Shown piece by piece: positions 15,019-64,000 of a DNA stretch of 64,000 nucleotides (position 1 is its first letter; each line of letters begins with the position of its first letter). This DNA comes from Takakia lepidozioides (taxonomy: Eukaryota > Plantae > Bryophyta), in NCBI GenBank assembly GCA_030704615.1, contig CM060732.1:69192001-69256000 (forward strand). The letters run 5' to 3'. The translations under genes and the position numbers were made by a program. The notes under the pieces are model-generated. The model was given only the letters and a program-made list of their open reading frames with translations, made no database searches and was not told the origin of the DNA.

Positions 15019-15153
15019 AGGGCCTTATCTCTGCCGCCTGCCATCTACCACCAGCTGTAAACGTGGGTCCTGTTTCTCCGTGCACGTTCTCCATCGTGTC
15101 CTACAGCGCTTTCGTTGCACGTTCTGGAGCGTGTGTTCTGCACTGTACAGGGC

Positions 15154-18100
15154 ATGGACGTAGGAGCGGAAGCCGACGACATGCAGCAATTTGAGAGCTG
15201 GCTTATACGCCCTCTTCGACAAAGTTTGCAAACACCAAAACCAGGACCTTTCAACAATAAGGACCTCAATTGGAAGTGTGAAACGCAATATGGGTTTAAG
15301 GGGGTGCAAGTGTGTGTTAAAAAGGCCTGTATACCTTGGGAGAGAGTTGCAGACTTCATCCATGGAGAGGAGAGTGTAGAGGACTACCCCACTCAATATT
15401 GGGTACATGTGCACAGTAAAGTGGACGCCGGAGTGCGGAAAGCTCCCGGAGGAAACAGCTTCTTGAGCAGTATCATGTGTGCACCATCCTCATTGTGGTT
15501 TAGGGATGTCACTACATTGTTGTTGTGATTTGTATTTGTCTCCGACTGTGGCTTCCATAAGATCATAGGTTGATATTTTGTACGGACCCGACGACAAGCG
15601 GCGCACGGTCAATGCAACTGTCGAGGATCCAAAAGAAAAGCGTGGAGGTCCGGATGTGGGTGCTGGCACTAAACACCCGCATAAAAGCCCAAGAATGAAG
15701 AAGTCAGACTATGGATAGTCGTACAAGTGCGGGTGTCTTTGTTGTTTCAAAGTGCAACAATCTTATCTTGCCCCGGACATTTGTGTCCTCACATACTACA
15801 ACAACATGGAGCACGTCGATGCCCTAGGGAAACCCTCCCATGGCAAGACCGCAGAGTTCGGGAACACACGGGCAGCCTACGCACACCGCATTAGCGAGGA
15901 ATTGAAAGCCTGGGTCGTTGAGTGTTTGTGCCGAGGGCTCACGGTCGCACAAATCATGATGGAACACAAGGAGCACGTCATGAACAACACAGGTTTGGGA
16001 GATGCATGGACACTTGATGATTTCCTTCTCGAGCAAGATGTCCGCAACCTGGCTGAGAAACGGGCGTGGCAGACGTTCAAAAAGCATGCCAACGATGCCG
16101 ACAGCGTCCGCATGTGGAAAGACCTGAACCCCGCATCAGCCTTCTTCTATCGAGAAGAAACATTGGCGCCAACCTTCAAGCATTACGATGGAGATTTGAC
16201 ATTCACTATTGGCATTCAAATTGAGTGGCAGAAGCAGAGAATGCTTCAATTGGGACATGCGCGTATCGTTGCATGCGATGCAACCTTCGGTACAAATCAC
16301 CACAAGGTACGATTCATCCCTCTTACCATTTCTGCAAATCAATTGTTTGTAGGATGTTGCACATTGGAACCAACTGACATAGAGACATAGTGCATCTGAA
16401 CAGTTCCCATTGTACAAGTTGATGGTTTTCGACGAGTGGTTGAACGGTATACCAGTTGCGTACATCATATCCGCCAGGAATAGGACAACAGACCTGGTAC
16501 CGTGGATGACAGCCTTGCGTGACCGACTCCACGCAGATATGCCAACCTGGCGACCCAATGCCTTTCATTGTCGATGATGCGGACGCTGAAATAAATGTTA
16601 TAAGGTGAGTCTTCCATACCTCAACAGACACCTACTGTCAAAGTCCTCTGGCATGCAACTGTCGTCATAGTGTGCTCTGCCAGAGTCTGTGGCAGAGTGG
16701 CGTGCGACAGTTCCCTTAGAGCCTTGCATGCGCGAGTCTGCTGGCAGGTTGGACTAAAACTAAGTCGCGTGGGCAAGCCAACTTGCCCGACCAAGTCAGT
16801 GGCAGACTTGCCCGGCCGAGTCCGCTGGCAGACTCGTCATCCGAGTCCGCCAGAAGACTCGCAGGGGCAAGTCTGTTGGCACCCTTCATGGGTCTGCTGG
16901 CAGACTTGGGAGGGGAAGTCGGTCCGCCAGACCCGTAGGCAGTGTCTTGCGACCAAGTTCGTTTAGGGGTTGGTGTGGAGTCTGCTTTGGGCTATTTGGC
17001 TGGCAGACACGCCTGCGCCAGAACCCTGGCAGAATTGCATGCGCGAGTTCGTTGGCAGACTCGACTCGGAGAGTCCGCTGCACACTCGTGTGGGCGAGTC
17101 CGCTTGCAGTCAACGAACCAACTCCGCTAGCAGACTTGCGTGGGCGAGTCCGCTGGTACCCTGAACGGGCCGAGTCCGCTAGCAGATTCGTCAGGCGGCG
17201 TCCGACACAAGACTCGCGGGCCGAGTCCGCTAGCACGCTTCATGGGTCTGCTAGCAGACTTCGGAGGGGAAGTCAGCCCGCCACACCCCACCCGCAGGCT
17301 ATGTCTTACCACCAAGTCCGTTTAGGGGTTGGTGTGAAGTCTGTTGGAGGTCTCTAGCACTCGGTTGGTGTCCACCGACAATGGGGGGGTTCCCTCTGAA
17401 GTGCCTGATGTGGATGTGTTATGTGCAGGATTACTTTCAAAGGAGTCCTCATTTTCCTGTGCCTTTGGCATGTCCGCAAGGCATGGGTAAAGCAATCATG
17501 CCAGAAGACCAAAGATCCCGTCACTGCAGCAAACGTGTTGAAGGATATGGGAAAACTTAATTAATGTAGAGGTGGACCAAGCGATCCCAAAAAAACGCTT
17601 CTATGGGTTGCCAAAACAATCAGGGACATGAAAAAGAAATATCGGAATGCCCGGGAATTTTTAAAGTACATCGACAAGGAATGGTCTCCTAAAATAGCAA
17701 TGTGGTGTACTGCTGCTCGTCATGTTCCACATGCCAGTCAAGACACAAATGCTAGCATTGAGGCATACCATGGAAACTTGAAGGCTAGACTGAGGATGGG
17801 GAAAGGCAAAATGACTGGTCGAAGAGTCGATTGGCTAATATGGGAACTCACGGGCCGTGTGCTCACACACTACTGGTATGCAATTCATTTGAAGACGAAT
17901 GGGTTCATACAGAATGACAAACAGGAAAAGTACATATCTAGCTCTGTGCTAGCGGCCAGGGACATTCCAGCGAGCAATGTGACTCTACCCTTGGTGGAAG
18001 GACAACCAGCGTATGTGCTAAGCAGCAATCACCCAGAGACAACCTACATTGTTTACAACCCTGGATCGGATTGGGCTTCTTCCACTTGCCCATGGGCAAT

Positions 18101-18600
18101 GAAAGGCAATTTGTGCAAACACCAAGTGAAAGTGCTGAAGTTGCTTCATCCCGACTTGCAGGATGGACTCATAGTGCGTGCATGTGGCACGACGCTCGGA
18201 ACCATACATGGAGGATTGCATAATCTGATGTTGGATGAAACAACTGTCGCAGGGGAGGTTGGTGCGATGGACAGACCTGTGGAGGATTGTGACTTCGCAC
18301 CCCGAGAGGAGCCCGTCTACGTCCCACTGAGTATGGCCGAAGGTCAGATATCTTTGTATTGAGGGTGATGACAAGTACCTCGAGACACATGTGTTGTCAT
18401 GCCTTCGAATCTGTACAGGGCAGCTTATTGATGTCCTAGCCAAAATTGCTAATGGGATGCTACATCCTCGTGCAGCAAAACCTTTCCGACCTGTTGACGA
18501 CAATAATAATTTGTCTCTGAAAAGGAAGAGGGATTTCGTCGAAGCATGGAAAACCCGACCCAGAGTCTTGCGGAGAACGCGCAATAGGTGTATGCCCCAA
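15154..18600 (+). pseudogene. MULE DDE transposase with SWIM zinc finger (spliced, disrupted)
   Basis: CDATFGTN (D), IVDDADAE (D), CLWH (CxxH), TNASIEAYH (E). SWIM-like ..STCPWAMKGNLCKH has lost its first Cys. Introns near 16307-16403 and 16604-17429; premature stops near 15716 and 17560. 3' end approximate. Confidence 0.85.
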
Positions 18601-19598
18601 CTCCTGCAACGAAAATATACACAAGAATTGTTAAGGTTTCAGACCGTTGGGCGGGACCCAGGTAGACATCATACTCACACAGCAAAACAATGTTATGCCA
18701 TCATAGTCCGTGCAGAGAAATCATCAGAGCTCAGAGCGCCCCACCGACCAGTTGTGGAAGACTGGGCATTCTGCTCAACAGACCGCGGAAATTGCCAAAC
18801 AGACTACTAAGCAGACTGCACACAAGTACATGATAACACTGCCAAGTCTGCTGATGGTTTTCGGCTAATTCAGACACAAAAACAGTCTTGGCCCAATACA
18901 CTGCGTAGTCTGCAGAGCCCAACAGACTTACAGTATGGACAGACTGGGTGGTCTTCTGCACTAACCACCGAACTGCTCCCACGGAGCGTACTCGCCCAGA
19001 CACGGAGCCCAACTGCACACATATACATTGTGCATCAACGTGCCACCCACTCTGCCGAGCAGACTGATGAGCGGCGAGCAGACTGCGCAACAGACTTCTT
19101 AGCATGCAACAGACTAGCCTGCAGACTGGTCAAACAGACGGAGACTACTGTAGTCTGCTAACAGTAGTTAATAGTAGAACCAAGTAGTCTGCTCAAGTGA
19201 GGACGTGGGGTGGTTGTCTACTAAACTGTATTGTTCGGCCATTGTACGACTTCTTTTGACGAACTTGCATAGGTGGGGACAGTATGAGTGCATGTAGGCC
19301 TTCATCTCAGAAAATATTACATACATTCAGAATGTGAATTGAAACAACAATGAATGTATATATTTATTTCCTCAAGGGAGCAGTTTTTCTGCATCGTCCA
19401 AACCACGGCGGATATACTTTACACACTGCAATCGCTGCAGTAACGGAAACCTGAAATTAAACCACCTTGGTGTGAAGGCTTGTCCTCTCTCTTTGGTTTT
19501 CTGCCTATCGCCTTTCAGCCAGTCGTAATACCCTTCAATGAAAGACATCACGTAAAACCCACACTCCCAACTGAAAGGTTGTTGGGGCACTTCGAGAG

Positions 19599-19925
19599 TG
19601 TCAAGTTATTTTACCACTAGTGTGAAACTAGCTAGGAAATAGCTAGCTTTTACATATTGACATTTGGGATTGGCCCAAGTGTCAATCCAGGGGTCAAGGC
19701 AGATTTAGGCCCTGGAGTGGTTATCTTCACGGCAAGCGCGGGAGGCTCATCCTTCTCGAGTTGAGCCTCACCGCGCCTAGCTATGGCGCCGTAGTGTGGA
19801 TTCCCCATGGCGTGGGGTGCACTTGGCTTGACTTGTATTTGAGTGATGAGGTTATATATGCATGAGTTTATGCTTCAGCTTTGTGAGCTCGCATGAGCTT
19901 GTGCTTGTATTCTTCTTCTTTATCA
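19599..19925 (+). repeat. LTR segment A, 5' copy (327 bp)
   Basis: Near-identical to 30453-30778; I see one substitution and one 1-bp indel. Confidence 0.95.
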
Positions 19926-19938
19926 CTCGAGAAGGATG
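19926..19938 (+). other. Putative primer-binding site, not tRNA-like, complementary to the LTR
   Basis: CTCGAGAAGGATG directly follows the LTR end ..TTATCA, lacks the TGG of a tRNA PBS, and is the exact reverse complement of 19748-19760. Confidence 0.6.
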
Positions 19939-20785
19939 TGGTGTGCTTGCCAAGCTCCTGAAACCCTAAGGCTTACATTTCCAGCCACAAGACACTTCTC
20001 TTGTGGTGCAAGAGCTCTTCTTCCAAGCTCTGAAACCCTAGGTGCACATTCCATGGCCTTGCCGCACCTCTTAGCTCCTGTTCCAGCCCTGCTCTTGCCA
20101 TGACAAGAGCCCTCTCAATGCTGAAGCTCGAGATTGAAACCCAATCTCACCATACTCCACAAAGTGCACTGATTTGCCCCAAGCCAAATCAGCCCTTTCG
20201 CTTGGTCTTGCAATCCTTCACACAATGACAACTCGCATTCCCAAGTCCAGTTCTCAGCTTTGCCACCAAAGCCACTATAACCTGCTCTTGACTGGTCCTC
20301 TTCCCAATCGTGCTTGCTCATGCATGTACACAATCTGAAACCATCAAGGTGCTCTGGAATTACCTACAGTATGGTGCTTTCATCTCTGAAGCTGAAGATC
20401 GAATGCCAAGGTTTACCACCTCGTAACCCACATCGCCTCCGCTTCTAACAACCAAGAGCTCCACGGTGCTCCTTGCATAACAACTTGGTTTCTCTCATTC
20501 TCAAGCAAAAACCACAAGTGCTACAACTAACTCGTATCTAGCACTCATAGATACGAGCTCATCTTTCTCGAGTGATAAAGAAGACTTGGTTTGTGGCAAC
20601 CACCTCATGGCTTAGGGCTACTATGGTGGTGTGTGGGAGCCGAAAGAGCAAGGATACCTTGCTGATTTCCTCACAGCCACCATAGCTCGGTGGAAAGAAG
20701 CCTAGAGTCCAAGAGACACAAACCCTAGCTTGGCGTGGCTAAACCCCTTGGAGAAATGGCTAAACTGCCAGAGCGGCCATGTGTG

Positions 20786-21965
20786 GGGCTGTGACAGGCT
20801 GTGGCAAGCTGTGACGGGCTGTGGCAAGCTGTGATGGGCTGTGTCAGGCTGTGACAGGTTGTGCCCAGTGGCCTTTGGGGCTGTGACGGGCTATGCGGGG
20901 CTGTGACAGGCTGTGCCCTGAGGCCTGTGGGGCTGTGACGGGCTGTGACAGGCTGTGGCGAGCTGTGACAGGCTGTGCCCAGTGGCCTTTGGGGCTGTGA
21001 CGGGCTGTGACAGGCCGTGCCTGATGCCTTTGGGGCTGTGACGGGCTGTGAGGGGCTGTGACGGGCTGTGTCAGGCTGTGGCGAGCTGTGACGGGCTGTG
21101 ACGGGCTGTGGCAAGCTGTGACCGGCTGTGATGGGCTGTGATGGGCTGTGACAGGCTGTGCCCTGTGCCCTGTGGGGCTGTGACGGGCTGTGTCAGGCTG
21201 TGACAGGCTGTGCCCAGTGGCCTTTGGGGCTGTGACGGGCTGTGCGGGGCTGTGACAGGCTGTGCCCTGAGGCCTATGGGGCTGTGACGGGCTGTGACAG
21301 GCTGTGGCGAGCTGTGACAGGCTGTGCCCATGGCCTTTGGGGCTGTGACGGGCTGTGAGGGGCTGTGAGGGGCTGTGACAGGCCGTGCCTGGGGCCTTTG
21401 GGCTGTGACGGGCTGTGAGGGGCTGTGACAGGCCGTGCCCATGGCCTTTGGGGCTGTGACGGGCTGTGAGGGGCTGTGACAGGCCGTGCCTGAGGCCTTT
21501 GAGGCTGTGAGGGGCTGTGAGGGCTGTGACAGGCCGTGCCCTAGGCCTTTGAGGCTGTGACGGGCTGTGATGGGCTGTGTGGCAAGCTGTGACAGGCTGT
21601 GATGGGCTGTGATGGGCTGTGACAGGCTGTGCCCTGTGCCCTGTGAGGCTGTGACGGGCTGTGAGGGGCTGTGACAAGCCGTGCCCATGGCCTTTGGGGC
21701 TGTGAGGGGTTGTGAGGGGCTGTGACAGGCCGTGCCTGAGGCCTTTGGGGCTGTGACGGGCTGTGAGGGGCTGTGACAGGCCGTGCCCATGGCCTTTGGG
21801 GCTGTGACGGGCTGTGAGGGGCTGTGACAGGCCGTGCCTGAGGCCTTTGAGGCTGTGAGGGGCTGTGAGGGGTTGTGACAGGCCGTGCCTGAGGCCTTTG
21901 AGGCTGTGACAGGCTGTGAGGGGCTGCGACAGGCTGTGCCCAGTGGCCTGTGGGACTGTGACGGC
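20786..21965. repeat. 10-bp minisatellite (GGGCTGTGAC / AGGCTGTGAC) with higher-order units, in the retroelement leader
   Basis: About 1.2 kb of GGCTGTGA cores interspersed with GCCGTGCC..GGCCTTTG spacers. Confidence 0.95.
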
Positions 21966-22907
21966 CTGACCAGTGAGCTGTGTGGGCAGGTGGGGTCTGT
22001 GGTGGCCCGTGTTGACTGTGGACGGCCTGTGCTGACTCGTGGAGGCACTGGTGGACTGCCTAAGGACTGGCATGTGTGGAAGGCCGAATTTTGAAGCTCG
22101 TGGAGGGCGGTTTGAGGAGTATCTTCATGATATTCCCATGGTCATGCAAGTGAGGGATAGAGAGGAGAGGAGAGAGTGTTGGGATGAGAGCATGCTGGGG
22201 TTAGGCATTGCTTTAGCTTCTCTTCCTCGTAGTTTCCACCCTCTCATTAGGCCAAGACCTTTCCGTAGGTGGAGGCAAGAGTCAGTCCGGGTTTGGGCTG
22301 GGGTGTCCTTGCAGGAGCAACACCGTGGAGTTGTTTTTGGTGTGGGGGAGTTGTCGTTCTGATTTCTTGTGTTTGGATCCCCTCCATACCTGCATGCTTG
22401 ACTGTGCGCCATGCTAGTTTGTGTGGGCGCTTGTTTTTATAGGTGATTGGTCCGGATTTGATCACCGGCCAGTCCTAGAGCATGCTGTCGATGGTGAGGC
22501 TGGGGTGATGACCAGCCAGACCATCATTTTTCTCCTGTGGTGAGGTTGGAGGTGATGACCAGCCAACCATAGGAGTGCTTGCGGTGGATGCAGGTACAGG
22601 TGTAGGCTATGTTAGGAACTTAGTATTCCAAACCATAAGCCGCAACAGGTTCTCTACCCGGTTACCTTGTGGAGAGGGGGTTAGGGACATGTTCATGACC
22701 GGTTGAGTGTCAACACGGAGGTGCCACTAGTTGCTGGGGACAGTGCCGGTTCGAGCACTAGCGATACTAGTGGGTACACGAGACGAGGTGTGCGGTTTAG
22801 GCCACCTTCACCTCCTGTGTCTTCTACGGAAGGTTCTGATTCGGATTGTGAATCAGGAGGACTCATACCGGGTGCAAGTTGTTTCTTTGCCATTGTTGTG
22901 GGACACA

Positions 22908-24150
22908 ATGGAGGAGATGTATGGAGCTACCAAGGGGCCACGAAGGTACTCTGGGGCGGTGGGCACCATCGAGTTGGATGATTTTATCCAAGAGTTTGAT
23001 AGTTGGTGTGATTTGCAGCAAATGCGCAATCCACAACTATTTACGCCGTTCATGGCATGGAAGGGGCTGTTTCAGCACCTTGAGGGGCCGCCTATGGATG
23101 ATTACCATGAGTTCAGGCGGGGGCATGAGGTTGAGATCGAGGAGTGGAGGATGTACTGGTCACCCGACTATGTCTCCATCACTAGGGGCACTAGAGCCAC
23201 GAGGGCAGTGGCTACACCTGCCGCTGCACCGGCAGCTTCAGCAAGCAGCAGTGGGACTGGTGGTACAGTAGCTACGACGTCCACCCAAGCCACTACCGCA
23301 CCAGCACTAGCACCCGTGCCTGCCTTCAACCCTGTTGTGGAGTTCTTCGAAGAGTTGAGAGGGAACTACCAAGGGGTGAGGACAGAGAAGTTGCGGAGCT
23401 TGCAAGAGTTCCAACGGAAGCCGACCGAGAGCTTGAGGGAGGCTTTCACTCGCATGAGGCGCTTGATAAATGTAACCCAAGGGGTTACGGAAGCTCAGGC
23501 AGTCCAATTCTGGTATGGGATATTGGACAAGGAGCTGAGGAGAAGGGTGCGGGTGCGGATGCAACTCTCCTACAAGCGGCCCAACCCACCTTAGCAAATG
23601 TGTTTTTGCTGGCAGAGCGGATAGAGCTCAACATGGTGGAGGAACGAGTGGTCATGTGGGATTTGCTAAGGAGACACCACGGGGGTAGTGGTGCTCCTAG
23701 CCAACCACTACCTCAACGTGCTCAAGGCAACAAGGGGGCTCAGGTGAAGCTCAGGGAAGGGCAGAGAGGACCTCAGATGCAGGGGTCTCTCCCTTCATTT
23801 GCTGGCCAACAACGGGCGGATGTGGTGTGCTGGACATGTGGAGGACCCCATGTCAAGAAGGATTGCCCAGAGGGAGGCAAAGGGCCGGCACATGCACAGC
23901 CTGCACAGTTGCAGTGTGGGCATTGTGGCAAACACGGGCATGGAGAGGCCAGTGTTATGGTTTGCATCCTGAGTTGCGCCCAGGCCAGTTCCAAGGGAAC
24001 AATGGTGGCCGGGGGCGAGGTGGAGCAGCCCAGAGAGGACGAGGTGGCCAGCCACGTGCAGGCCAAGGGCAAGCTCAACGTGGCCAAGGACGCGGAGGTC
24101 AGGGTGTTGACCAAGGCATGGCCAACCGGCTTCAGCAGCTAGAGCAGAGG
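22908..24150 (+). CDS. gag: Gag with two CCHC-type zinc knuckles (frameshifted)
   Basis: LDDFIQEFDSW, FQRKPTESLREAFTRM; knuckles CWTCGGPHVKKDC and CGHCGKHGH... Confidence 0.8.
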
Positions 24151-24879
24151 CTCGCTGCCATGGCTACAGCTCAGGTGGTACCGGCTCTAAGGCCGGATGG
24201 TCCACCTCCTGCTCCTGAGGGAGGAGATATGGGAGGCATGGGATTCATGTGTGGAGCAGCACTACCACTAGTGCAGGTGGAGTCTGCTGCAGCCGTGACT
24301 CGAGGAGCAGCACGAGTTCCTGAGCCACGAGGTGCAGAGGTGGAGTTGGATCCACAGCGTGGGGAGGCAAGCCGTCAGGCTAGGCTTCCTCAGTCATTCA
24401 CATTGGCGGAGACAGTGTCGACGCCATCCATGGCACCTAGTTCTCGCCCGACTGTTACCGAGGCGGAGGTTACTATGCCATTGGGGAGAGCTACACGGGT
24501 AGCACCACTACCTAGTGTTGCCAAGGCTACGGCAGCTAGTGTGCTGCTAGGAGCGGCCACATCTGTGTGCCAGGCTCCATTGTTCTCGGCTACCATGATT
24601 GCGACGCCGGGGGTAAGACCAGCTGAGGTGTTCAGGCTGGCAGCTACACTCTGTGAGAGTGGGGAGGTTACTTCATCTTCTGCGGAGATAGTGGGAGGTG
24701 TAGTGCCGGAGGGATCCTCGGATTTGAGGGTCAAGACTGCCACGGCGGCGCCATGGCAAGCTGCAGCTGCCAGGTTGATGGAGCTGCCAGCTAGGCCAGC
24801 CATTGAGCGCGCCATGGTGACACCTGGAGTTGTCATGTTAGACAACCAGGATGGCATTTTCTGTTTGAGTGGACCGGCA

Positions 24880-25260
24880 GGCAAGAGAGGTACCGGCCAC
24901 TGCGGTCTTGTTGGACTCGGGAGCTCAGCCACTGATGCTGGGCAGAGCTGCTATTGCAGGCTTGGGCCTCACGGAGGCGGATATGGAGCCTTGTCCTTTC
25001 CAGATACAGACGTCTCTGGGAGGATCGGAGCAGGCTCGGGGCATGACACGGTGAGTTGGCTATCAGACTACGGCCGGATCACCCTACAGATGGCTCAGTG
25101 ATGCGAGCCAAGGCCATTGTGACAGACGCAGTCTCATACGATGTCCTGGTTGGTGGGGCAGTGTTGTACCCCATGGGCTTCACCCTGGATTTTTGGGAGG
25201 AGTCAGCTTCCTATAGGCCTGCATGGCAGTCAGGGGAGGGCCGGCGTGTGCAGCTCCCTG
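24880..25260 (+). CDS. Retroviral-type aspartic protease domain
   Basis: AVLLDSGAQ catalytic motif and YDVLVGGAVL (ILG-like) motif, split by a frameshift. Confidence 0.8.
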
Positions 25261-25619
25261 TGACGTTCATAGGAGGAGTTGCGGTTGCCCAGCGAGGCAA
25301 GATGCCGACACTAGCAGCATTCACAGCGGCAGTGAGTTGGGCCTAGAGAGTTGCTTGAGGGCAATGCTCATTCAGAGGATGTACCACCTCCGGAGAGCAG
25401 GATGACATGTATGGTATGGCGGAGTTGCCTACCATGGTTGCTCAGACTCCATTGTGGGGCACGAGCAAGGATTTGCAGCGGGATGCTGATCGACGGGTGC
25501 AACAAGCCTGGGTGGAGGCTTTTGTACCGTCAGGAGAGGAGGAGAGTGTGGGGATTGCACCAGGACCACCTCAATTGTCTCCATTGGACACCACACCTAT
25601 TGTGTGGCAGTATCCGGAT

Positions 25620-26590
25620 GAAGGCATTTGTCTTCTGGACTTGTTTGGCGGGATCAGCACCGGATTGGCTGCTGTGTTACAGGCAGGTGTACGAGTTCGG
25701 CGTTACCTGTATGTGGAGAGGGATGAGACTGCACGACGCGTTTCACTTCGCCATGTTGCTCAGTTGGTGCAGCGGTACCCTGAGTTGTTGTCGGTGTCTG
25801 CAATTCGTGGATATCAGCAGGCCTTGCCAGCAGACATTTCGTTGCTGGGGGCGCAGGATTTGGAGCGGGTTGGCTCCATTGATCTGGTAGTGGCAGGTTG
25901 GGCCCTGCCAAGGGCATTCATCAGCCGGGCATGGCAATGGATTGCGAGACTCGAGGTCGGGTCTGTTTTGGGAGATGGTGCGGGTTTTGCGCCACTTGCA
26001 GCTTCATCAAGCTGTATCTCCAGCATACATCTTGGAGAATGTGCCACTGATGGGCGATTCTCGGGCCAGGGTGATGGCCAGTGTGCATCAAGTCCGGTCG
26101 TGGCTTGGGTCAGCAGTGTTGCTAGATGCAGCTACAGTGGGGTCACGGGCTCATCGTCCACGGCTATGGTGGACTAACATGATGCCACCCGCACTGCTCA
26201 AGCGTGCATTTGATGGGGTGCAGCGGCCAGCACATCTCACAGTGGATAACATTCTGGACACAGGGAGGCAGTCTCACGTGTGAGACACGATGACCGTTCG
26301 CCTTTGGCAGTGGTCAACAAGGTGGGTCAACCACGAGCAGCATTACCTACACTGCTCAGCTTCCCAGGATCGCATGCTTTCCGGGATAGTGGACCTGGCC
26401 TCCTGTGGGATGCTCAGTTGCAGCAGTTAGTGGAGCCTAATGCTGACGAGCGTGAGCGGGCAATGGGTTTTACCACTGGTACCACGGCGGTGTCGTCTCT
26501 TTCTGAGGCATCACGTCGTCAAGTGTTGGGGCAAGCAATGGATCTCAATTGCTTGACCTGGATTATCAGCTTGGCTCTAGCTGAGCAACG
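25620..26590 (+). CDS. C5-cytosine DNA methyltransferase domain (DNMT3-type) within the retrotransposon polyprotein
   Basis: Motif I LDLFGGIST; II YVERD; III ADI; IV DLVVAGW-PCQG (one extra G at 25902); VI ILENV; VIII AHRPRLWWTN; IX ERERAMGF; X RRQVLGQAMD. Confidence 0.9.
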
Positions 26591-27030
26591 CAGAGTGCGG
26601 AATACACTTCCCTCAATGGTCTCTCTGCCTACCGAGACGGTACAGGCAGTGAGTGGGGGCGAGCATATGAGGACCACGGGGTGCATGCATCCATGGCACA
26701 CGTGGGAGGTGCTCGAGGTTCAGAGGGAGTTGGCAGCCAAGGCGGCTGTGATGGATGAGGTTGGGGATTCTTCTCGGTTGAGGAGGTCCTCAAGGATGAG
26801 ATGATGGGGCAGGATGAGGCCTTGTCATTGACTGAGCAGGTAGGGAGTACTGCTCAAGAGGTTGCAGCATAGCAACCACGGGACGCGTCCTCTACCTCTA
26901 AGCCCACTGGACTTAAGGTTGTAGTTACGGAGGACAATTGGGAGCCTGACATTGGACCCATTGTCACCGGAGAGAGAGACGACGTATACGGCGGTTCCTG
27001 AGGGCTTACAGGAATTGCTTTGCCTTCAGT

Positions 27031-28380
27031 TTGAAGGACTTGGGAGCACTGAAGGGTCAAGAGATCCGTATTGAGTTGGCCACTGACACGCCAATCTTTC
27101 GGAGACCCTATAGATACAGTGACATGGAGAGGTCTTTGATTCAGATGAGGACTCAAGATCTCTGGGAGGCAGGTTTGGTGGAGCTCTCTGGTGGAGAGTA
27201 TGCTTCAGCCACAGTGATGCCAGCCAAGAAGGATGTCTATGGCAATTGGACGGAGAGACGTATGTGCGGTGATTACCGGCCTGTAAATCGTCAGACCAAG
27301 TCCGATAAGTATGCCATGCCAACACCAGAGGAGATCTTTGATGCCATCGGGCATGCTAAGGCCTTTAGCACTTTGGATTTACGATCCGGATATCACCAGT
27401 TGCCAATCAAGGAGGCGGACAAGCAGAAGACGGCATTCTGGGGGATCAATGAGCACGGCAAGGATTGCCTATATCAGTGGCGGTTCTTACCATTTGGGCT
27501 TAAGAATGCTCCTGCAGAGTTTCAGAGAGTCATGGATAGGATTCTAGCAGGGGTGGACTTTGCTCGGTGCTACATAGATGACATCATCATCTTTAGTGTT
27601 ACGATGGAGGAGCATGAGAGACACCTTCAGGTGGTATTGGAGCGCTTGAGAGCGCACGGATTGAAGTTGCATCCGGGGAAGTGCAAGTTTTTCCACAACC
27701 AGATTGAGTATCTGGGTCACATGATATATCCTGGAGGATTGGGGGTACAGCAGACTAAGGTAGAGGCCATTGCACAAATTCCACGCCCCACGGATGTGAG
27801 CCGAGTTCGAGCTTTCATGGGGTTGGCAAACTATTATAGACGGTTTGTCAAGGGATTTAGTACCATTGCAAAGGCTCTAACCAAGCTGACCAAGGTGGAC
27901 AGGAGTGGCAGTGGGAAGATGAGCAGGAACGAGCTTTTCAAGAGCTCAAGGCGAGGTTGACCTCGGCGCCTATCTTGAGACGACCTATCAGGGGGCGTCC
28001 CTTTCAGCTGCATACGGATTGGAGCATGCTGGGGCTTGGAGCGGTGCTCACACAGGTGGATGATGAGGGAAGAGAGTTCGTAGTGGCTTACGCTAGCCGC
28101 TCGAACAACGCTGCAGAGGCTAAGTACAGCTCATATGAGGGAGAGTGCTTAGCTGCAGTGTGGGCCGTGGCACACTTCAGGTGCTATCTATACGGCAATC
28201 TTTTCACCCTTGTCACGGATCACCAGCCACTCAAGTGGTTGATGGAGTCAGACAAGCTTACGGGGAAGCTTGCACGGTGGGCACTTATACTCCAGGAGTA
28301 TGACTTTCAGGTTGTGCATCGACCGGGTTTGGTCAATCGGGATGCGGATGGATTGAGTCGCAATCCATGCATGAGCCAGC
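27031..28380 (+). CDS. pol: Reverse transcriptase and RNase H
   Basis: RMCGDYRPVN, LDLRSGYHQ, PFGLKNAPAEFQ, YIDDII; RNase H LHTDWS, YEGECLA, TDHQPL, ADGLSR. Confidence 0.95.
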
Positions 28381-28599
28381 AGGATGACACTGGAGCTCGT
28401 GGCATGGTGAGACGGACGAGGAGATGGTGCCGGGATGGCACGCATCTGCATTTTTGTGTATCTTGGCATCGGGAGGTCAGATTGGACCTACAACAGGGAT
28501 GACTGTAGACGGAGTGTCTGAGGACCCTGAGGCTAGTGATGAGCTAGGTGGTGCCAGAGATATACATGAGGATTCGGCTGTGTTGGACTACCTCCGCAC

Positions 28600-30002
28600 G
28601 GGAGACACGGCAGCCATTGTGACTGCCAGGGAGAGGGATCGGATCCTGCAACGAGCCAAGAGGTTCAAGTGGGAGGGGATACACCTACTTCGAGTGTGGG
28701 AGGATGGTCGGGTGAGGATTGTGCCTCACCCCACACAGCGTGCACGGTTAGTGCGGCATGCCCATGAGGAGTTGGGGCATTTTGGAGTGCGACGCACTCA
28801 CAGTTTACTGCAGGGGCAGTATTGGTGGCGTGGTATGCATACAGAGGTGCAACAGTTGTGGCTAGGTGCATGGTGTGTGACAGGGTGCGTGCTTCATTCA
28901 ACGCCCCTACACCACAGTTGCATCCTTTACCTATCATGGGATTGGGCTACAGGTGGAGTCTTGACTTCGCAGGACCGTTGCCACTGACTATGCGCCACCA
29001 CAGATATGTGTTGGTGATGGTGGAGCACTTCTCCAAGTGGATTGAGTTGGTTCCATTGCCTGACAAGGCTAGTGAGGGGGCTGCGTATGCATTCTTGGAT
29101 CGTGTGCTTAGCCGATTTGGTGCTCCAGCTGAGGTACTCACGGACCAAGGGAGAGAGTTCTTGGGGGAGTTTCAGGCTTTGTGTGATAAAGCCTTGATAG
29201 ACCACCGCACCACTTCTCGGGATCATCCTGAGGCCGATGGCTTAGCAGAGAGAGTTGTTCAGACGGTGAAGAGGGGTTTGCGCAAGTATGGCTTGCAGAA
29301 GGGACACCTAGGAGATTGGGATCTTCAGGTTCCTTGGTTAGCCATGGGCTACAGGTTCAGCAAACAAGCATCACTTGCCTCCTTCTCACCATATTTCCTT
29401 CTCTTTGGCCGAGAGCCGGATTTGCCTGCAGCCATTCGTAGGGACACTGCTCAAGTCCTTAACCTTGACGATCCGGACGTGTGGGTACGTGCATGTGATC
29501 AGCGTGCAGAGTTGTTCAAGAAAGTCATGCCCATGGCTTTGAGAACCTTGCCATTGCACAGCACCGTGATACGTTGAGGTATGCCACTATACGTGGTGGA
29601 GGATATCGTCCTGGGGTTCGGAGGTTTAGCCCTGGTGACTATGTTTATTTGCAGCAGACTGCTCCTACGACTCTGGATGTTACTGCAGGGCGTGTTATTC
29701 TGAGGGTTCGAGAGGTGTTGCCCTCAGGGGTCCTGATCTTGGAGGGTCGGGATGGCATGACTTGGAAGGACCATGTGCGTAATTGTGCGCCATGTCACCT
29801 TCCCAATGTCGATGGCAGAGTTGACCCAAACTTGGCAGTGGTACCTGCAGGTTTGAGGTGCATGCTCTGTGGGTCTGCCAAAGGGGCAGCCACCATGCTG
29901 GTGTGTGATCGATGCTCAAGGGGTTGGCATATGGGATGCTTGACACCACCTCTTGAGAAGGTTCCTGACGGAGATTGGTTGTGTCCACACTGCTTGGGAT
30001 AG
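28600..30002 (+). CDS. DDE integrase with C-terminal PHD finger
   Basis: HHCC (AHEELGH..CMVC), WSLDFAGP, LTDQGREF, GLAERVVQ; C-terminal C4HC3 CMLC..MLVCDRCSRGWHMGCLTPPLEKVPDGDWLCPHC. Confidence 0.92.
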
Positions 30003-30249
30003 TGGCAGTGGACATGACTGGAGGCAGCTAACAAGACATGGGAGGCCAAGCTCATAGGAGTCAATACATGAGATCCCAAGCTCAAGTTCACAGGTTGCAA
30101 GACGGCGACTAACGATGGGGCAACTCTTGCACCCGGCCTCTTGATCTATCGAGTTTGAGTGTAGTAGGGATAGTGGTGGAGGACTTAGTGAGGCTATGGT
30201 CACTATCACATCTTGTGGCTACCTGGACTTAGAGGGACCTAAGCACCAG

Positions 30250-30262
30250 CTAGGGGGGCGAT
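30250..30262 (+). other. Polypurine tract
   Basis: TAGGGGGGCGAT immediately before the TG that starts segment B. Confidence 0.65.
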
Positions 30263-30778
30263 TGTGTGGACTAGTGACTGCCATAGTGGGCAGCGTAGTG
30301 GCAGCCTAGTGACTGACTAGTTGTAGCCTAGTGGTTGGACTAGTGGCTGGACTAGTGGTAGACTAGTGGTATACTAGTGTGTGGTGTGCACATGTGTTGT
30401 GTGGTTTTGGACAGCGATGTAGTTGTGTAGCGATATGTATGCGCACGACAGCTGTCAAGTTATTTTACCACTAGTGTGAAACTAGCTAGGAAATAGCTAG
30501 CTTTTACATATTGACATTTGGGATTGGCCCAAGTGTCAATCCAGGGGTCAAGGCAGATTTAGGCCTGGAGTGGTTATCTTCACGGCAAGCGCGGGAGGCT
30601 CATCTTTCTCGAGTTGAGCCTCACCGCGCCTAGCTATGGCGCCGTAGTGTGGATTCCCCATGGCGTGGGGTGCACTTGGCTTGACTTGTATTTGAGTGAT
30701 GAGGTTATATATGCATGAGTTTATGCTTCAGCTTTGTGAGCTCGCATGAGCTTGTGCTTGTATTCTTCTTCTTTATCA
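30263..30778 (+). repeat. Complete 3' LTR (B 30263-30450 + GC + A 30453-30778), 516 bp
   Basis: Starts TG right after the PPT and ends ..TTATCA, the same end that precedes the PBS at the 5' side. Confidence 0.85.
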
Positions 30779-30779
30779 T

Positions 30780-30965
30780 TGTGTGGACTAGTGACTGCCA
30801 TAGTGGGCAGCGTAGTGGCAGCCTAGTGACTGACTAGTTGTAGCCTAGTGGTTGGACTAGTGGCTGGACTAGTGGTAGACTAGTGATATACTAGTGTGTG
30901 GTGCACATGTGTTGTGTGGTTTTGGACAGCGATGTAGTTGTGTAGCGATATGTATGCGCACGACA
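30780..30965 (+). repeat. Second copy of LTR segment B at the extreme 3' end
   Basis: Near-identical to 30263-30450 (a 2-bp indel and one substitution seen); followed directly by TSD AGAG. Confidence 0.93.
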
Positions 30966-33900
30966 AGAGAGTTGAACTGAAATGCCATTACTTCATCCCA
31001 TTGTGGAGTCCCAACAGCATATCCAAAGCACCCTGCATGCACCTTCCGAATCCAACCAAGGAGCTGTATGCAAGTATGCAGTTCCCTCTGGGAGTTCAAG
31101 TGGGTGTAGGCGCTTTTCCTTAGGTCGATGATAATGACGCTCCAGTGGCACCTTCAATGTAAAAATGAACATGCCCGACAATTTCATTAGTCCCAAGCCC
31201 AACAGACTCTGCAGACCAATAGACCAACATACTCGGCTGTCCACATGGCCAAATGCCTAGCAGACAAAGTACTCGAACAGATGCAACGGACTAGCAGTCT
31301 AGCAGACCAACAGTCCAAGAGTGCAGGAGTCCAACAGACCATCACGTCCAATTCACACGAGAGTCGAACAGACCATGACAGGGCCTGCACACACAGAAGA
31401 CTGGGCATTTAGCAGACTCCAAAATGTGCAACCAGTCCGTCGGGTCTTACCCTTGCAAGACCGGCACCAACATATGAGTGCAGTCTTTAATGTCTTTGTC
31501 AAGTCGCGCAGGAGTCAAGGCACCATCAAGGTTTGCCACCAAAGTTTCGCGTGGGGCTGTGTCGAAAGTCTGGAAAACAGACCACGTTGACGTTGGCAAA
31601 AGAGCGACAGTGCCATACGTCCTCGAGTCTAGGGTGTTCTCGAAAAAACGACACCAGACATCCAAAAATTTGTTCGAGCACTCCGACTCAACCACGTTCA
31701 GTGCTTTCATGTCTTCCGGCGCAATGCCACATCGGAACCGCGAGTCTCCTTCGAAAAAATACACCATGCTATTCCCAGCGGCTATATGTATGGACATCAA
31801 TCGCCAAAATCGACTTTCAATCCTGCACATACAGTCAGACCCCACCAAGACACCACTCATTTCATAAAGTCCAAAAACATCAGTCTGCTGCACAGTCTTA
31901 GCAGACCGATGAGGGGACCTGAATTACCAGAAAGTCCAAAAACCGAAGTCAAGACAGACTCTTAGCAGACCAACTCTTAGCAGACCGACCAACAGACCCG
32001 ACAATCGGACAGTGGATAGTGGACATTCGGACAATGGACTGCATTGTCACAGCAGACCAAACAATAGACCTGACATTCGACAAAGTCGACAAACACAACT
32101 GTGGGGCACAATCATAGCAGACCGAGTAGAGGCCTCACAAGACTACAGACAAGACGCCAGTAGACTGCCAGAAGATACATACCTGCAAAGGCAACTTTAA
32201 GATAACACGACCAAGCAGCAGACACATATGACTTACTTCTTCGACGCAAGTAACTCTGCCACATCCTTGTCCATGTCCAAACACAATCAGCGGTCCTTGT
32301 TCATAAACACATCAGACTTGCCTTTCCTAGCTGGTCTCTTTTGAACATGACCCTCTCCAGTCTCCTTGACCGCCTCAATGACTGGACGTTTTTGGGCTTT
32401 TCCTCTTTTTGCTCGAACGGAGGTGCTCTCTACCGCAATGCCTGGGACGACTAGCCCAGACTGCCGCAATATTGCAGTTCTGCTGCGCAACAGAAGAATG
32501 TAAGTCGGTTTGTTGACACTTGCCGGTCCAATCCTTGCAGCCTCATGAATGGCATGCGTTGAACTAACACGAGAATCGGGCGGTGTGAGCAGACCGCCTG
32601 TCTTTGTCGTTGACCCAACATTAGCAGGAGCATGAGCAGACGGAGACGGCAAAGACAAAGTCTAGTTGCGGACGTCCTCAACTATCGCCTCATGGAAACT
32701 CTCATGGGCGGGCTGTACAACAGTCTGCTGGAAGGACTGTTGAGTAGCCGCATTGGATGGGTCAACTGCAATCTCCCCAATAGTCTGTTGGACATACTTT
32801 GAAGAAGTCTCCTTGGAAAACTCAAGTGCAGTCATCTGTTCAATCTGCTGGGGAGGGTCTGCTGTAGTCTGCTGGGAAGTGTTTGCTGCAGTCTGTTGGG
32901 GGTGTGTCTGCTGAAGTTACCCGGACAGAGTCATGTGCAGTCTGGTGGGCAGGGCCTGCTTCTGCAGTCACCTGGGCAGACTCATGCGCAGTCTGGTGGG
33001 ACGGGTATGCTGCTGCTGTCACCTTGGCAGACTCATGCGCAGTCTGGTGGGCAGGGTCCGCTGCTACAGTCCCCTGGGCAGACTGGTGGGTAGAGTCTGT
33101 TGCAGTCTTCTGGGCAGACTCTCTCAGCTGGGCAGTCACCTCGGCGGTGTCTTGTGTTGTCTGCTGACCAGAGTCTTGTGAACTCGTCTGAGAAGACTTG
33201 TGTGTAGTCTCTTGGGCAGAGTATTGTACCAGCAGACTATCAATTTTACCATCAAGTAAGCCTGCTGATAGAACAGACTCGGGGTTGAAAGTGGTGGGAA
33301 GGGTGCAATCAGAGACATGTAGAGCCGGGTTTGCTGGACTTCCCTCATTGGATTCTGCTTATCGGTCTATGATGCGGTTTACTGGTCTACAGGTCGGTTC
33401 GCTCACTTCAAATTCATCGATGACTCTCGCCAATGAACGAACAAAGACAGGGCTAAGCTCAAAAGTCATACGGGATGATGGATACTGAGGATTTACCAAG
33501 GTCATAGTTACATCGTATGGGCCAAAGTGTGTGGGAGAACTTATCCGGCGGGGGAAAGTCGATTCTGGCACCATTGACAAAGGGTTGGCAGACATTAAAA
33601 AGCTGGGTTTGGCAGATGATGTCCGTTTAAATTGGGTCAAATCAGACATCCACTGTTGGTCAGACCGTTGAATGTGCCATTGTCCCGTTATAACAGACTC
33701 AGTAACAAATGTTGTGGGCAAGTCATGGATGACAGTCTGTGGAGGACAGTTTGTGGAGGGTACTGTTTGGCAGACTCCACTGAGGTCTGCTGTGAGGTCT
33801 TTTGGGTCTTCTGGCCATGCTGGTTTGCAATGGGAGTGTCCTTTTCAGTGTCATCCTGAGTCTTCTGTTCAGTCTGTTTACGAGTCTCCTGGTCACACGC

Positions 33901-42092: not shown

Positions 42093-43530
42093 TCCATGTG
42101 CAACATCCTACGAACAATTGATTTGCAGAAATGGTAAGAGGGATGAATCGTACCTTGTGGTGATTTGTCCCGAAGGTTGCATCGCATGCAACGATACGCG
42201 CATGTCCCAATTGAAGCATTATCTACTTCTGCCACTCAGTTTGAATGCCAATAGTGAATGTCAAATCTCCATCGTAATGCTTGAAGGTTGGCGCCAATGT
42301 TTCTTCTCGATAGAAGAAGATTGATGCGGGGTTCAGGTCTTTCCACATGTGGACGCTGTCGGCATCGTTGGCATGCTTTTTGAACGTCTGCCACGCCCGT
42401 TTCTCAGCCAGGTTGCGGACAACTTGCTCGAGGAGGAAATCATCACGTGTCCATGCATCTCCCAAACCTGTGTTGTTCATGACATGCTCCTTGTGTTCCA
42501 TCATGATTCGTGCGACCGTGAGGCCTCGACACAAACACTCAACGACCCAGGCTTTCAATTCCTGGCTAATGCGGGGTGCGTAGGCTGCCTGTGTGTTCTT
42601 GAACTCTGCGGTCTTGCCATGGGAGGGTTTCCCTAGGGCATCGATGTGCTCTATGTTGTTGTAGTATGTGAGGACACAAATGTCTGGGGCAAGATAAGAT
42701 TGCTGCACTTTGAAACGACAAAGACACCCGCGCTTGTACAACTCTCCGTAGTCCGACTTCTTCCTTCTCGGGCCTTTATGCGGGTGTTTAGTGTCAGCAC
42801 CCACATCCGGACCTCCACGCTTTTGTTTTGGATCTTCGACAGTTGCATTGACCGTGCGCTTGTCGTCGGGTCCGTAGCAGCATTGATACCTATCAAATGG
42901 AATTCAAAGCCAAAATATCAACTTATGGACTTATGGAAACCACTGTCGGAGACAAATACAAATCACAACAACAATGCAGTGAGATCCCTAAACCACAATG
43001 AGGATGGTGCACACATGATACTGCTCAAGAAGGTGTTCCCTCTGGGAGCTTTCCGCACTTCGGCGTCCACTTTACTGTGCACATGTACCCAATATTGAGT
43101 GGGGCAGTCCTCCACACTCTCCTCTCCATGGACAAAGTCCACAACTCTATCCCAAGGTATACAGGCCTTTTTAACACGCACTTGCACCCCCCTAAACCCA
43201 TATTGCGTTTCACACTTCCAATGGATGTTCTTATTGTTGAAAGGTCCTGGTTTCGGTGTTTGCAGATTTTGTCGAAGAGGGCGTATAAGCCGGCTCTCAA
43301 ATTGCTGAATGTCGTCGGCTTCCGCTCCTACGTCCATGCCCTGTACAGTGCAGAACACACGCTCCAGAAGAACCTGCAACGAAAGCGCCGCAGGACACGA
43401 TCGAGAACGTGCACGGAGAAACAGGACCCACGGCTGGTGGCAGATGGCAGGCGGCAGAGATAAGGCCCTAAATTGGAGGGCTGCGATGGGATTCGTCGTG
43501 GACGGCCCAGATCTTGCGGGCGGGCGGACA
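42093..43530 (-). mobile_element. Truncated, inverted second copy of the same MULE family (inner TIR plus 5' part of transposase)
   Basis: Closely similar to about 14960-16365 (MDVGAEADD.., QQSYLAPDICVLTYYNN.., CDATFGTN); lacks the outer TIR and the 3' part. Confidence 0.9.
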
Positions 43531-43633
43531 CGCGGACACGCGGACTAGAGGGAGCGCACACAAGGGCCCTACTAACTAAGTTATTAGGGTTACTTGAACG
43601 GGCCGCAAGAAACAAGATACGGGGAATATACTG

Positions 43634-45460
43634 ATGGCAAGGTATGTGAAGCAGGGATATTATAGGGAAACCCTTGAGACCTTGGACACTACCCTAGATG
43701 ACATGTATGCCAAATGCGAGAGCATCGAGGATGCAAAGGGAGTGCTCAACAATATGGCTGAACGAAATGTGGTTTCATGGGGTGCAATGATAGCAGGGTA
43801 TGCCCAGCAAAGGTTTGGGATGGAGGCTTTGGAGATCTGTGAGCAAATGATGCAGGATGGGGTGAAGCCCAACCAAGTCACATTTGTCTGCATTTGCAAT
43901 GCGTATGCCAGCCTGGGAGCTCTGGAAAAGGGCAAAGAGGTCCATGCTGACAGCACGAAAGCTGGAATTGTGCCAAATATCGTCTTGGATACATCCCTTG
44001 TCGACAAGTATGCCAAATGTGGGAGCCTCAAGGATGCAAAGGGAGTGTTCGACAATATGCCTGTGCAGATATGCCAAGCATGGCTTTGGAATGGAGGCTT
44101 TGGAGACCTATGAGCAAACGATGTGGGAAGGGGTGAAGCCCAACCAGATCACATTGGTTTGCGTTTGCAATGCATGTGCCAGCCTGGGAGCCCTAGAAAA
44201 GGGCAAAGAGGTCCATGCTGACATCATGAAAGCTGGAATTGTGCCAAATGTCATCTTGAACACTACCCTCGTGGACATGTATGCCAAATGCGGGAGCATC
44301 AAGCATGCAGAGGGGTTGTTCGACAATATGGCTAAACGAAATGTGGTATCGTGGGCTGCAATGATCACAGGATACGCCCAGCATGGGTGTGGGATGGAGG
44401 CTTTGGAAACCTATGATCAACTGATGCAGGAAGGGGTGAAGCCCAACCAGTGAACATTCGTGTGTGTTTGCAATGTGTGTGCCAGCCTGGGAGCTCTGGA
44501 AGAAGGCAAAGAGGTCCATGCTGACATCATGAAAGCTGGAATTGTGCCAAATATCATCTTCGATACTACCCTCATCGACATGTATAGCAAGTGCGGGAGC
44601 ATCAACAACGATGCAAAGGGAGTGTTTGAAAATGTCTGAACGAGATGTGGTTTCATGGAATGCAATGACCGCCAGAATGGTTGTCGTAGGGAGGTCCTAC
44701 AACTATTTGAAGGGATGCAAAAGGAAGGCTTGAAGCCAAACAATTTCACCTTTATGTGTTCTCTCTGCATGCAGCCATGGGGGGCCTACTAGATGAAGGC
44801 AGACACTTCTTTGATTCCCTGAGTCAAGATCATGGCCTGACTCCAACAGTGCAGCACTTAGGCTGCATGGTGGACCTTCTTGGCCATGCAGGGCGATTGG
44901 ACGAGGCAGAGGATTTGATCAATAAAATGCCAATCAAACTGGATGTTGGGGTGTGGAGGGCCTTGCTTGGTGCCTGCAGGAGTCATGGCAATGTGGAGGT
45001 GGCAGAGCGTGCGGCAAAATGTTTTCTCGAGTGGGATGGACAAGATGCTGGAACTCATGTGTTGCTATCGAACATCTATGCTGTAGTTGGTAGGTGGGAC
45101 GATACTGCTAAGGTGAGAAAAATGATGAAGGTCAGAGGTGTCAGAGAGGAGCCAAGTTACTGCTGCATTGAGGTCTGGGATAGGGTGGATAACTTCGTTA
45201 TCGATGACAAATCACATCCGCAAATTGAGGCAATCTATTCTGAGCTGAGAAAATTGTCTGGGCAGATGAAGGAGGCAAGGTACATGCCTGACACGCACTC
45301 GGTATTTCACGATGCGGAGGAGGAGCGGGAGGAATTTTCTCTTTGCCACCACAGTGAGAACCTGGCCATTGCTTTTAGGCTGAAGAACCTACGGGTGTGT
45401 GGTGACTGCCACACGGCCACTAAGTTCATCTCAAAGATCGTTGTCCGTGACAATCTGTAG
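43634..45460 (+). pseudogene. Degenerate PLS-E-DYW PPR paralog
   Basis: Same repeat unit as 47717-50500 but with frameshifts, stops and deletions; HHSENLAIAF (HSEK to HSEN), truncated DYW domain. Confidence 0.88.
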
Positions 45461-50500: not shown

Positions 50501-50507
50501 GGTCGAG

Positions 50508-63985: not shown

Positions 63986-64000
63986 GTCACTTGTCGGGGA

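Follow-up and report, generated by a model that had tools for sequence, protein, structure and literature searches.

Why would a transposon carry an enzyme of the class that silences transposons? This question has stood since 2018, when the enzyme from a Klebsormidium element was reported to be inactive in yeast, and it is raised again by a locus in the genome of Takakia lepidozioides. We analyzed a stretch of 64,000 nt (CM060732.1 of assembly GCA_030704615.1, positions 69,192,001 to 69,256,000, forward strand), which we call the window. A first-pass annotation, made from the sequence alone, had described a DNMT3-type cytosine methyltransferase (DNMT) within a retrotransposon there. We find that this domain belongs to a Ty3/Gypsy element whose layout is Gag-protease-DNMT, a stop codon, and then reverse transcriptase (RT), RNase H, integrase, and a PHD finger (Table 1). 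Below we consider how the element is built, what the domain is, how far the family extends, and what the enzyme might do.

Table 1. Features of the Takakia element, in window coordinates.
Feature	Position	Strand	Evidence or detail
Left target-site duplication, 4 bp, AGAG	19595..19598	+	sequence; empty-site joint in runs X1 and X3
Repeat A1, 5' end of element, begins TG	19599..19925	+	327 bp
Tandem-repeat array in 5' leader, 10- and 51-nt periods	20766..21993	+	families D1 and D2
Gag part of ORF1, including zinc knuckles; frame broken in this copy	22908..24140	+	PF03732, E = 6.8e-4, below curated cut-off
ORF1, aspartic protease (LLDSG near 24,908); frame breaks	24800..25300	+	sequence; alignment A1; relatives match PF13650/PF13975
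ORF1, C-terminal DNMT3-like C5 cytosine methyltransferase	25620..26590	+	frame breaks near 25,900 and 26,277
In-frame stop, TAG-CAA-CCA	26870..26878	+	type I readthrough motif UAG-CARYYA
ORF2, reverse transcriptase and RNase H	26977..28379	+	PF00078, E = 8.4e-34; PF17917, E = 7e-37
ORF2, integrase: zinc-binding part, DDE core, C-terminal part	28541..29840	+	PF17921, E = 8.4e-11; PF00665, E = 3.5e-14
ORF2, C-terminal PHD finger and stop	29853..30002	+	PF00628, E = 1.6e-11
Repeat B1, internal copy of 3' end	30261..30450	+	repeat comparison
Palindromic B1/A2 junction, GACA-GC-TGTC; internal head-to-tail copy of both termini	30447..30456	.	sequence
Repeat A2	30453..30778	+	repeat comparison
Repeat B2, 3' end of element, ends CA	30778..30965	+	comparison with B1
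Right target-site duplication, AGAG	30966..30969	+	sequence; empty-site contigs

A Ty3/Gypsy element with split repeats

The element spans 11.4 kb (19,599 to 30,965), starts with TG, ends with CA, and has AGAG on either side. It shares with Ty3/Gypsy elements the order of Gag, protease, RT, RNase H, and DDE integrase, as well as the TG...CA ends and the target-site duplication; the position of the chromodomain is taken by a PHD finger, and our RT tree was built without reference RTs. We found no tyrosine recombinase in the window element; a DDE integrase is present. In the available part of the REXdb paper (PMC6317226), the terms PHD and methyltransferase do not occur.

In place of two full LTRs, the element has split direct repeats, arranged as A1...B1-A2-B2. 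A1 and A2 differ by one substitution and one homopolymer indel over 327 bp, and B1 and B2 differ by one substitution and one 2-bp indel over 190 bp, for a total of two substitutions and two small indels in 517 aligned bases (about 99% identical). Also, contigs that join 19,595 to 30,967 were found in runs X1 and X3 (one contig in each run; both runs are from one sample), so an empty site exists, either as an allele or as a paralogous locus. The similarity of the repeats and the empty site in the reads both support a young insertion, as the first-pass annotation had proposed.

Of the related loci described below, 24 extend as far as the PHD finger, and we examined 23 of these for split repeats: the repeats were whole in three, partial in four, and absent from 16. 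The B1/A2 junction is in the same place in seven relatives, four of which have the same GC spacer. All three complete relatives have a DDE integrase and are flanked by 4-bp duplications, one of them with a mismatch.

Judging by eye, we saw no TGG-type tRNA primer site directly 3' of A1. At the expected location of a primer-binding site, the end of A1 (19,912 to 19,938) pairs with 20,560 to 20,586, 650 bases downstream, in an inverted repeat of roughly 26 bp; this pairing is a candidate for self-priming. Farther into the 5' leader, the tandem-repeat array is G-rich and extends for 1.2 kb, and contigs from each of the four runs cover it.

The family is abundant in the host. In run X1, 110,296 contig records align to the element, which is a measure of depth and not of copy number.

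In the aligned coding parts of the window copy, we counted 12 or more breaks in the reading frame but no premature stop codon, and a PPR gene of 984 codons elsewhere in the window is unbroken. Combined with the nearly identical repeats, so many frame breaks suggest that these may be uncorrected long-read errors in a repeat. Contigs from other copies, in all four runs, have in-frame length variants at both of the sites where the DNMT domain is broken. Despite its frame breaks, the Gag part can be aligned to the Marchantia protein P0017, with 61% identity.

Other features of the window

The PPR gene (47,720 to 50,671, minus strand) has 303-bp repeats, and its E, E+, and DYW domains agree with the host being a land plant. 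An inverted paralog, which is broken, lies at about 43,600 to 45,460 on the plus strand. An unrelated Gypsy element with a chromodomain (60,721 to 64,000, minus strand) is cut by the end of the window, and its CpG ratio of 0.90 is higher than elsewhere in the window. Two inverted repeat copies (15,122 to 16,364 and 42,096 to 43,369) are 94 to 95% alike and contain an open reading frame without a Pfam match. Another open reading frame (17,565 to 18,359) has no Pfam match and has a pattern of Cys and His residues that we take to be SWIM-like. Finally, the open reading frame at 1,619 to 2,416 on the plus strand matches an OB-fold family (PF01336, E = 9e-8).

The domain is DNMT3-like

The motifs of C5 methyltransferases occur in their canonical order between the protease and the RT, as had been claimed: motifs I (LFGGIS), II, IV (PCQG), and VI (ENV) are followed by VIII (AHRPRLWWTN), IX (ERERAMGF), and X (RRQVLGQAMD). 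In the window copy, these motifs are spread over three reading frames. The first-pass annotation had repaired the domain by removing one G from a run of G's. There is indeed a break at that site, but the second break was missed. Similarly, the domain had been described as part of a retrotransposon polyprotein: the retrotransposon is there, but no single continuous frame joins the domain to the RT, because a TAG intervenes. A comparison to PF00145 had been suggested as a check, and the middle piece of the domain does match this family, with E = 1.6e-9, which clears the curated cut-off. Scanned separately, the two outer pieces had no match in Pfam.

Which kind of C5 methyltransferase is it? When we compared a profile of the family to the PDB, the best match was DNMT3A (E = 4e-17), followed by DNMT3B and DNMT3C. 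Matches to DNMT2 (E = 6e-6 to 4e-3), DRM2 (E = 1e-4), and HhaI (E = 9e-4) were weaker, and neither DNMT1 nor CMT was among the 51 profile matches. The circular permutation that is the hallmark of DRM is absent, as the motif order is canonical. A predicted structure for a relative, P0010 (pLDDT 87, pTM 0.88), is most similar in fold to DNMT3A and DNMT3B (E = 8e-18), with 21 to 23% identity to the animal enzymes. By its motif order, its sequence, and the fold predicted for P0010, the domain is a DNMT3-like C5 methyltransferase, and the original preference for DNMT3 over MET1, CMT, or DRM holds up.

The same motifs had been cited as resembling DNMT3. DNMT3A and DNMT3B are the best matches in the PDB, but phage methyltransferases have similar words in motifs VIII to X. 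With one query, four phage enzymes scored 45 to 60 bits, as compared to 48 bits for DNMT3A; with the profile, phage enzymes scored 50 to 62 bits, as compared to 65 bits for DNMT3A. Because phage enzymes score about as well as DNMT3A does, it does not follow that the domain descends from a host DNMT3.

We also looked for depletion of CpG or CHG as a footprint of the enzyme. The element did not differ from its flanks (CpG ratios of 0.51 to 0.64 and 0.54 to 0.62, respectively).

The methyltransferase is a conserved part of the family

Using the middle piece of the domain, we identified 42 relatives among 533 candidate proteins, including proteins from Marchantia, Calypogeia, and Sphagnum. A scan of metagenomes yielded 93 stretches that encode a relative, and the best 80 of these were used for the statistics on loci. 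Among viral contigs, there were 35 pattern matches and no relatives. All 80 loci have the same gene order as the window, and 24 of them reach the PHD finger. Thus, the domain is present well beyond the window copy, both in these loci and in named genomes. The catalytic cysteine persists as well: it is conserved in all 73 of the loci that cover it and in 378 of 383 proteins. Among the proteins, the glutamate of the ENV motif is conserved in 380 of 394, and the arginines of motif VIII are conserved in 366 of 391 and 370 of 386. The proline of motif IV is less constant.

To quantify selection, we used the 65 loci (of 80) with enough coverage of the DNMT. Relative to the window copy, pS was 0.735, which is saturated, and pN was 0.194. 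The values for RT were similar (pS = 0.722 and pN = 0.169; 32 loci), and pN for the spacer between DNMT and RT was 0.354. Since synonymous sites are saturated (dS was finite for just 39 of the 65 loci), the resulting dN/dS of about 0.1 for the window DNMT is rough. Among the metagenome copies, which are mostly decaying, the median dN/dS was 0.59 over 1,993 pairs; when the comparison is restricted to pairs whose dS exceeds 0.5 (58 pairs), it is 0.24. These rough estimates support purifying selection on the DNMT, as on the RT: its pN is close to that of RT and below that of the spacer. The claim that the domain is a selected trait of the family is therefore sustained. Contig coverage over the DNMT is also about the same as over the rest of the element, in all four runs.

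A conserved stop codon follows the methyltransferase

The TAG that separates DNMT from RT (at 26,870) is in frame, and in the relatives, the homologous stop is 216 bases before the RT motif and in frame with the RT. We found a stop codon at this site in all 53 of the loci (of 80) in which the anchor was found (36 TAG and 17 TAA); the anchor pattern imposed part of the context of the stop, and the 53 loci, being numerous and much alike, do not count as independent lineages. Consistent with the stop being real, gene-called relatives (for example, P0017, P0012, P0003, and P0042) terminate soon after their DNMT. The DNMT is therefore at the C-terminal end of ORF1, and we predict that it is produced at the level of Gag.

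In the window, the stop is within a type I readthrough motif, UAG-CARYYA (as given in the available part of PMC5382211). The exact CARYYA context was found in the window and in one of the 53 loci; most of the others have CAA-CCC. Those CAA-CCC loci whose sequence we inspected continue to an ATG, so in these, ORF2 may be expressed by reinitiation or from a separate RNA. We also considered whether a 3' hairpin might stimulate readthrough. A hairpin is strongly predicted in the window (z = -3.8), but it is not conserved (the median z in relatives is -0.48, and just 3 of 41 are below -2), and a control window folds as well. We therefore rejected this candidate.

The family extends to chlorophytes, in two layouts

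A profile search returned 573 clusters with E of 1e-30 or below, of which we checked a part. The longer relatives fall into two layouts. In the first, Gag, protease, and DNMT precede the RT; this layout is found in bryophytes, Closterium, and Klebsormidium nitens. In the second, the order is RT-RNase H-DNMT-integrase-PHD; it is found in Tetradesmus, Hariotina, Chromochloris, Haematococcus, and Cymbomonas (proteins P0147 to P0225) and is complete in 86 of 363 proteins. The chlorophyte DNMT is in Pol, beside the integrase, so the wider lineage does not depend on dosage at the level of Gag. No seed plants were named among the matches listed (42 of 42, 120 of 310, and 102 of 102).

The window domain is 75% identical to those of Marchantia and Calypogeia, 37 to 40% identical to those of Closterium and Klebsormidium, 35 to 43% identical to enzymes with the chlorophyte layout, and 27 to 31% identical (over partial alignments) to phage enzymes. 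A protein from K. nitens (GAQ93235.1, or P0340) is collinear with Marchantia P0017 across the protease, the linker, and the DNMT (569 columns, 29% identity, E = 1e-54), which points to one capture. Its methyltransferase is 38% identical to the window domain. From its species and its layout, we infer that P0340 is one of the copies described by de Mendoza 2018.

Our most careful tree has 47 rows, hand-picked from over 400 proteins and loci; host DNMT3 is not among them. In this tree, the window domain groups with Marchantia, Calypogeia, and metagenome copies (support of 100/99), the chlorophyte enzymes form a group (100/99), and the enzymes from elements are grouped apart from the phage enzymes; the tree does not fix the deeper branching order. 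The Gag-protease-DNMT layout did not form a supported clade in the free tree, nor was a single clade rejected (p-AU = 0.26). Our first trees, built with FastTree, failed to separate the layouts (supports of 0.25 and 0.40 for DNMT and of 0.81 and 0.66 for RT). We had intended to root the RT tree with a second, more distant element, which lies upstream of the family copy in locus L009 (1 to 2034; 44% identical to the window in RT and 61% in RNase H), but by its RT, it fell inside the family group.

Given the collinear cassette, the 38% identity, and the grouping apart from phage enzymes, the sequences indicate that the window enzyme and the K. nitens enzyme share a common descent. We are confident that the window element belongs to the Gypsy-DNMT3 lineage. 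The first-pass annotation had suggested an ancient streptophyte lineage. It is ancient, but it is wider than the streptophytes, as it reaches the chlorophytes.

What might the methyltransferase do?

We lean toward the view that the enzyme is made at the level of Gag, is packaged in the particle, and methylates the element's own cDNA before integration; judging from sequence features, this seems somewhat more probable than not. Most ribosomes would stop at the TAG, and a minority would read through to make RT and integrase; if termination exceeds readthrough, as proposed, then DNMT would outnumber both. The protease would free DNMT inside the particle, beside the newly made cDNA. The methylated cDNA might resemble the host's heterochromatin, or might arrive already silenced, and the host would then suffer less harm. 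The PHD finger would steer integration, and the element would use the internal B1-A2 copy as a template to restore its two ends, instead of relying on a tRNA primer and true LTRs. Methylation of cDNA was previously proposed for DIRS elements by de Mendoza 2018 (PMC5890265). As reported in the available part of that paper, SymbioDIRS-Dnmt3 enzymes methylate CG de novo in yeast and KnitGypsy-Dnmt3 does not; since DNMT3B also failed in yeast, the authors considered the negative result to be inconclusive.

Alternatively, the enzyme might act in the nucleus, either free or with the integration complex, and methylate the insertion site or sister copies of the element. The PHD finger might then bring the enzyme to chromatin that lacks H3K4 methylation, as the ADD domain does in animal DNMT3. 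The chlorophyte layout, with DNMT directly before integrase and PHD, would fit this idea, as would the best PDB matches for the PHD finger (29,853 to 29,999), which are the fingers of CHD4, KDM5B, PHF12, KDM5A, and ATXR5. Several PHD fingers of these types bind unmethylated H3K4. However, the land-plant layout has a stop codon between DNMT and integrase-PHD, and in Ty3 biology, the protease normally cleaves the domains of the polyprotein apart. We consider nuclear action to be rather unlikely, and we give still less credence to the idea that the domain is kept for something else than methylating DNA cytosines; it might, for example, methylate or bind the RNA of the element, or bind the ends of the cDNA during split-repeat strand transfers. 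Such a role would account for the inactivity of KnitGypsy-Dnmt3 on yeast DNA (in the available part of PMC5890265) and for the glutamate that replaces the proline of motif IV in 124 of 382 relatives. But the similarity to DNMT3 in fold and sequence is far above the similarity to DNMT2 (see the E values above), and the catalytic cysteine, the glutamate, and both arginines are each kept in over 93% of proteins.

As to origin, the first-pass annotation had also raised an independent capture. We considered the case in which a land-plant element recently acquired a host DNMT3. Our tree leaves some room for this, as it lacks plant host DNMT3s and does not support the Gag-protease-DNMT group as a clade, though it does not reject one either (p-AU as above). 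The collinearity of the protease-linker-DNMT cassette with the K. nitens protein argues against it, and so does the identity of the whole domain to the enzymes of Klebsormidium and Closterium, which exceeds that of the modeled relative to animal DNMT3. Furthermore, DUF3444, which host plant DNMT3s carry at the C terminus (PMC6453930, available part), was not matched by the window pieces or by the four relatives that we scanned, and de Mendoza 2018 set host Dnmt3 apart from the KnitGypsy clade (PMC5890265, available part). A recent capture is thus very improbable. The numerous frame breaks could also be taken to mean that the domain is just a passenger, that is, a one-off insertion, a neutral remnant, or an assembly chimera. 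This explanation is refuted, for practical purposes, by the shared gene order in 80 loci and in named genomes, by purifying selection, and by the even contig coverage in all four runs.

More speculatively, returning to the packaged enzyme that we favor, the family could be a Ty3/Gypsy clade that has mostly escaped description, that matches the green plants in age, and that is now both active and abundant in land plants, with a replication and epigenetic toolkit of its own. Such elements would replicate without a tRNA primer; would combine a DDE integrase with split repeats and a palindromic end-junction; would carry a DNMT3-like writer that is dosed to the level of the capsid by readthrough, so that copies are born methylated; and would be targeted by the PHD finger. 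The writer would have moved once between Gag and Pol and might be of phage-type origin. We view this full picture as possible but doubtful.

Comparison to known systems

The most similar element that has been described is KnitGypsy-Dnmt3 from K. nitens, with DIRS-type repeats and Ka/Ks below 0.2 (de Mendoza 2018, PMC5890265, available part). Like the window element, it is a Gypsy element with a non-permuted DNMT3-like domain under purifying selection, and our split repeats are consistent with its DIRS-like repeats, for which the legend of Fig. 4c gives no finer detail. In contrast, the window element is from a land plant, is at high copy, and has close relatives in liverworts and Sphagnum. The main text of that study places the domain in the Pol ORF, does not contain the term PHD, and mentions no stop before the RT, though the figure may show otherwise. 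The term Gypsy-DNMT3, which we encountered in two papers, is used for streptophyte elements in 10.64898/2026.05.21.726589; in their available parts, that work and PMC12344493 mention the streptophyte elements without detail.

SymbioDIRS-Dnmt3 from Symbiodinium (PMC5890265, available part) is also a DNMT3-like enzyme in a retrotransposon, but this is a DIRS element and not of the DDE-integrase type. The one protein that we found from S. kawagutii (P0227), which may belong to such an element, is 28% identical to the window domain over 187 residues and has a long branch. Ngaro/PAT-like elements, VIPER, and TATE have split direct repeats in the same A1...B1 A2 B2 arrangement (PMC6681497, available part), but the window element differs in having a DDE integrase, TG...CA ends, and 4-bp duplications.

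Chlamydomonas Gypsy-7a_cRei and other PHD-bearing algal elements (10.1101/2022.06.16.496473, available part) are, by description, alike in having a PHD finger in a Gypsy polyprotein; Gypsy-7a_cRei differs in that it has LTRs, and DNMT is absent from the domain legend. The host plant DNMT3s (PpDNMT3a/b; PMC6453930, available part) and human DNMT3A share the motif order, the fold, and the patterns of motifs VIII to X, but the window domain lacks DUF3444, PWWP, and ADD and is fused to Gag instead of being a stand-alone gene. Finally, the EpiLTRs of Cymbomonas and Euglena are LTR elements that combine a DNMT with a chromatin reader (10.64898/2026.05.21.726589, available part). Their DNMT is sister to DNMT4 and is accompanied by DAM and a chromodomain, and the authors separate EpiLTRs from Gypsy-DNMT3.

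Our literature search, which mostly did not cover subscription journals, found no description of the land-plant or chlorophyte members, of the stop, or of the PHD finger; supplements may hold such records. In particular, the family is not described from land plants in the available parts of PMC6317226, 10.1101/2021.11.30.470311, 10.1101/2022.06.16.496473, PMC6453930, PMC8557442, 10.1101/363937, or PMC11982613.

Implications

Overall, the Takakia element extends the range of the known Gypsy-DNMT3 lineage and is not a new kind of element. It is of interest for the size of the extension, into land plants, along with the conserved stop, the combination of an integrase with split repeats, and the relatives in Marchantia. 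Close relatives in Marchantia polymorpha (such as Mp_4g09160) have all of the motifs intact in the annotated protein, and genetics, methylomes, and methylation mutants are available there, so the question of why transposons carry such an enzyme is directly testable. In particular, the conserved stop predicts an excess of DNMT over RT and integrase. Split repeats would probably hide elements of this kind from LTR finders. In bryophyte genomes, the family may add methylation that is made by the elements themselves, and it may inflate the number of DNMTs that are annotated.
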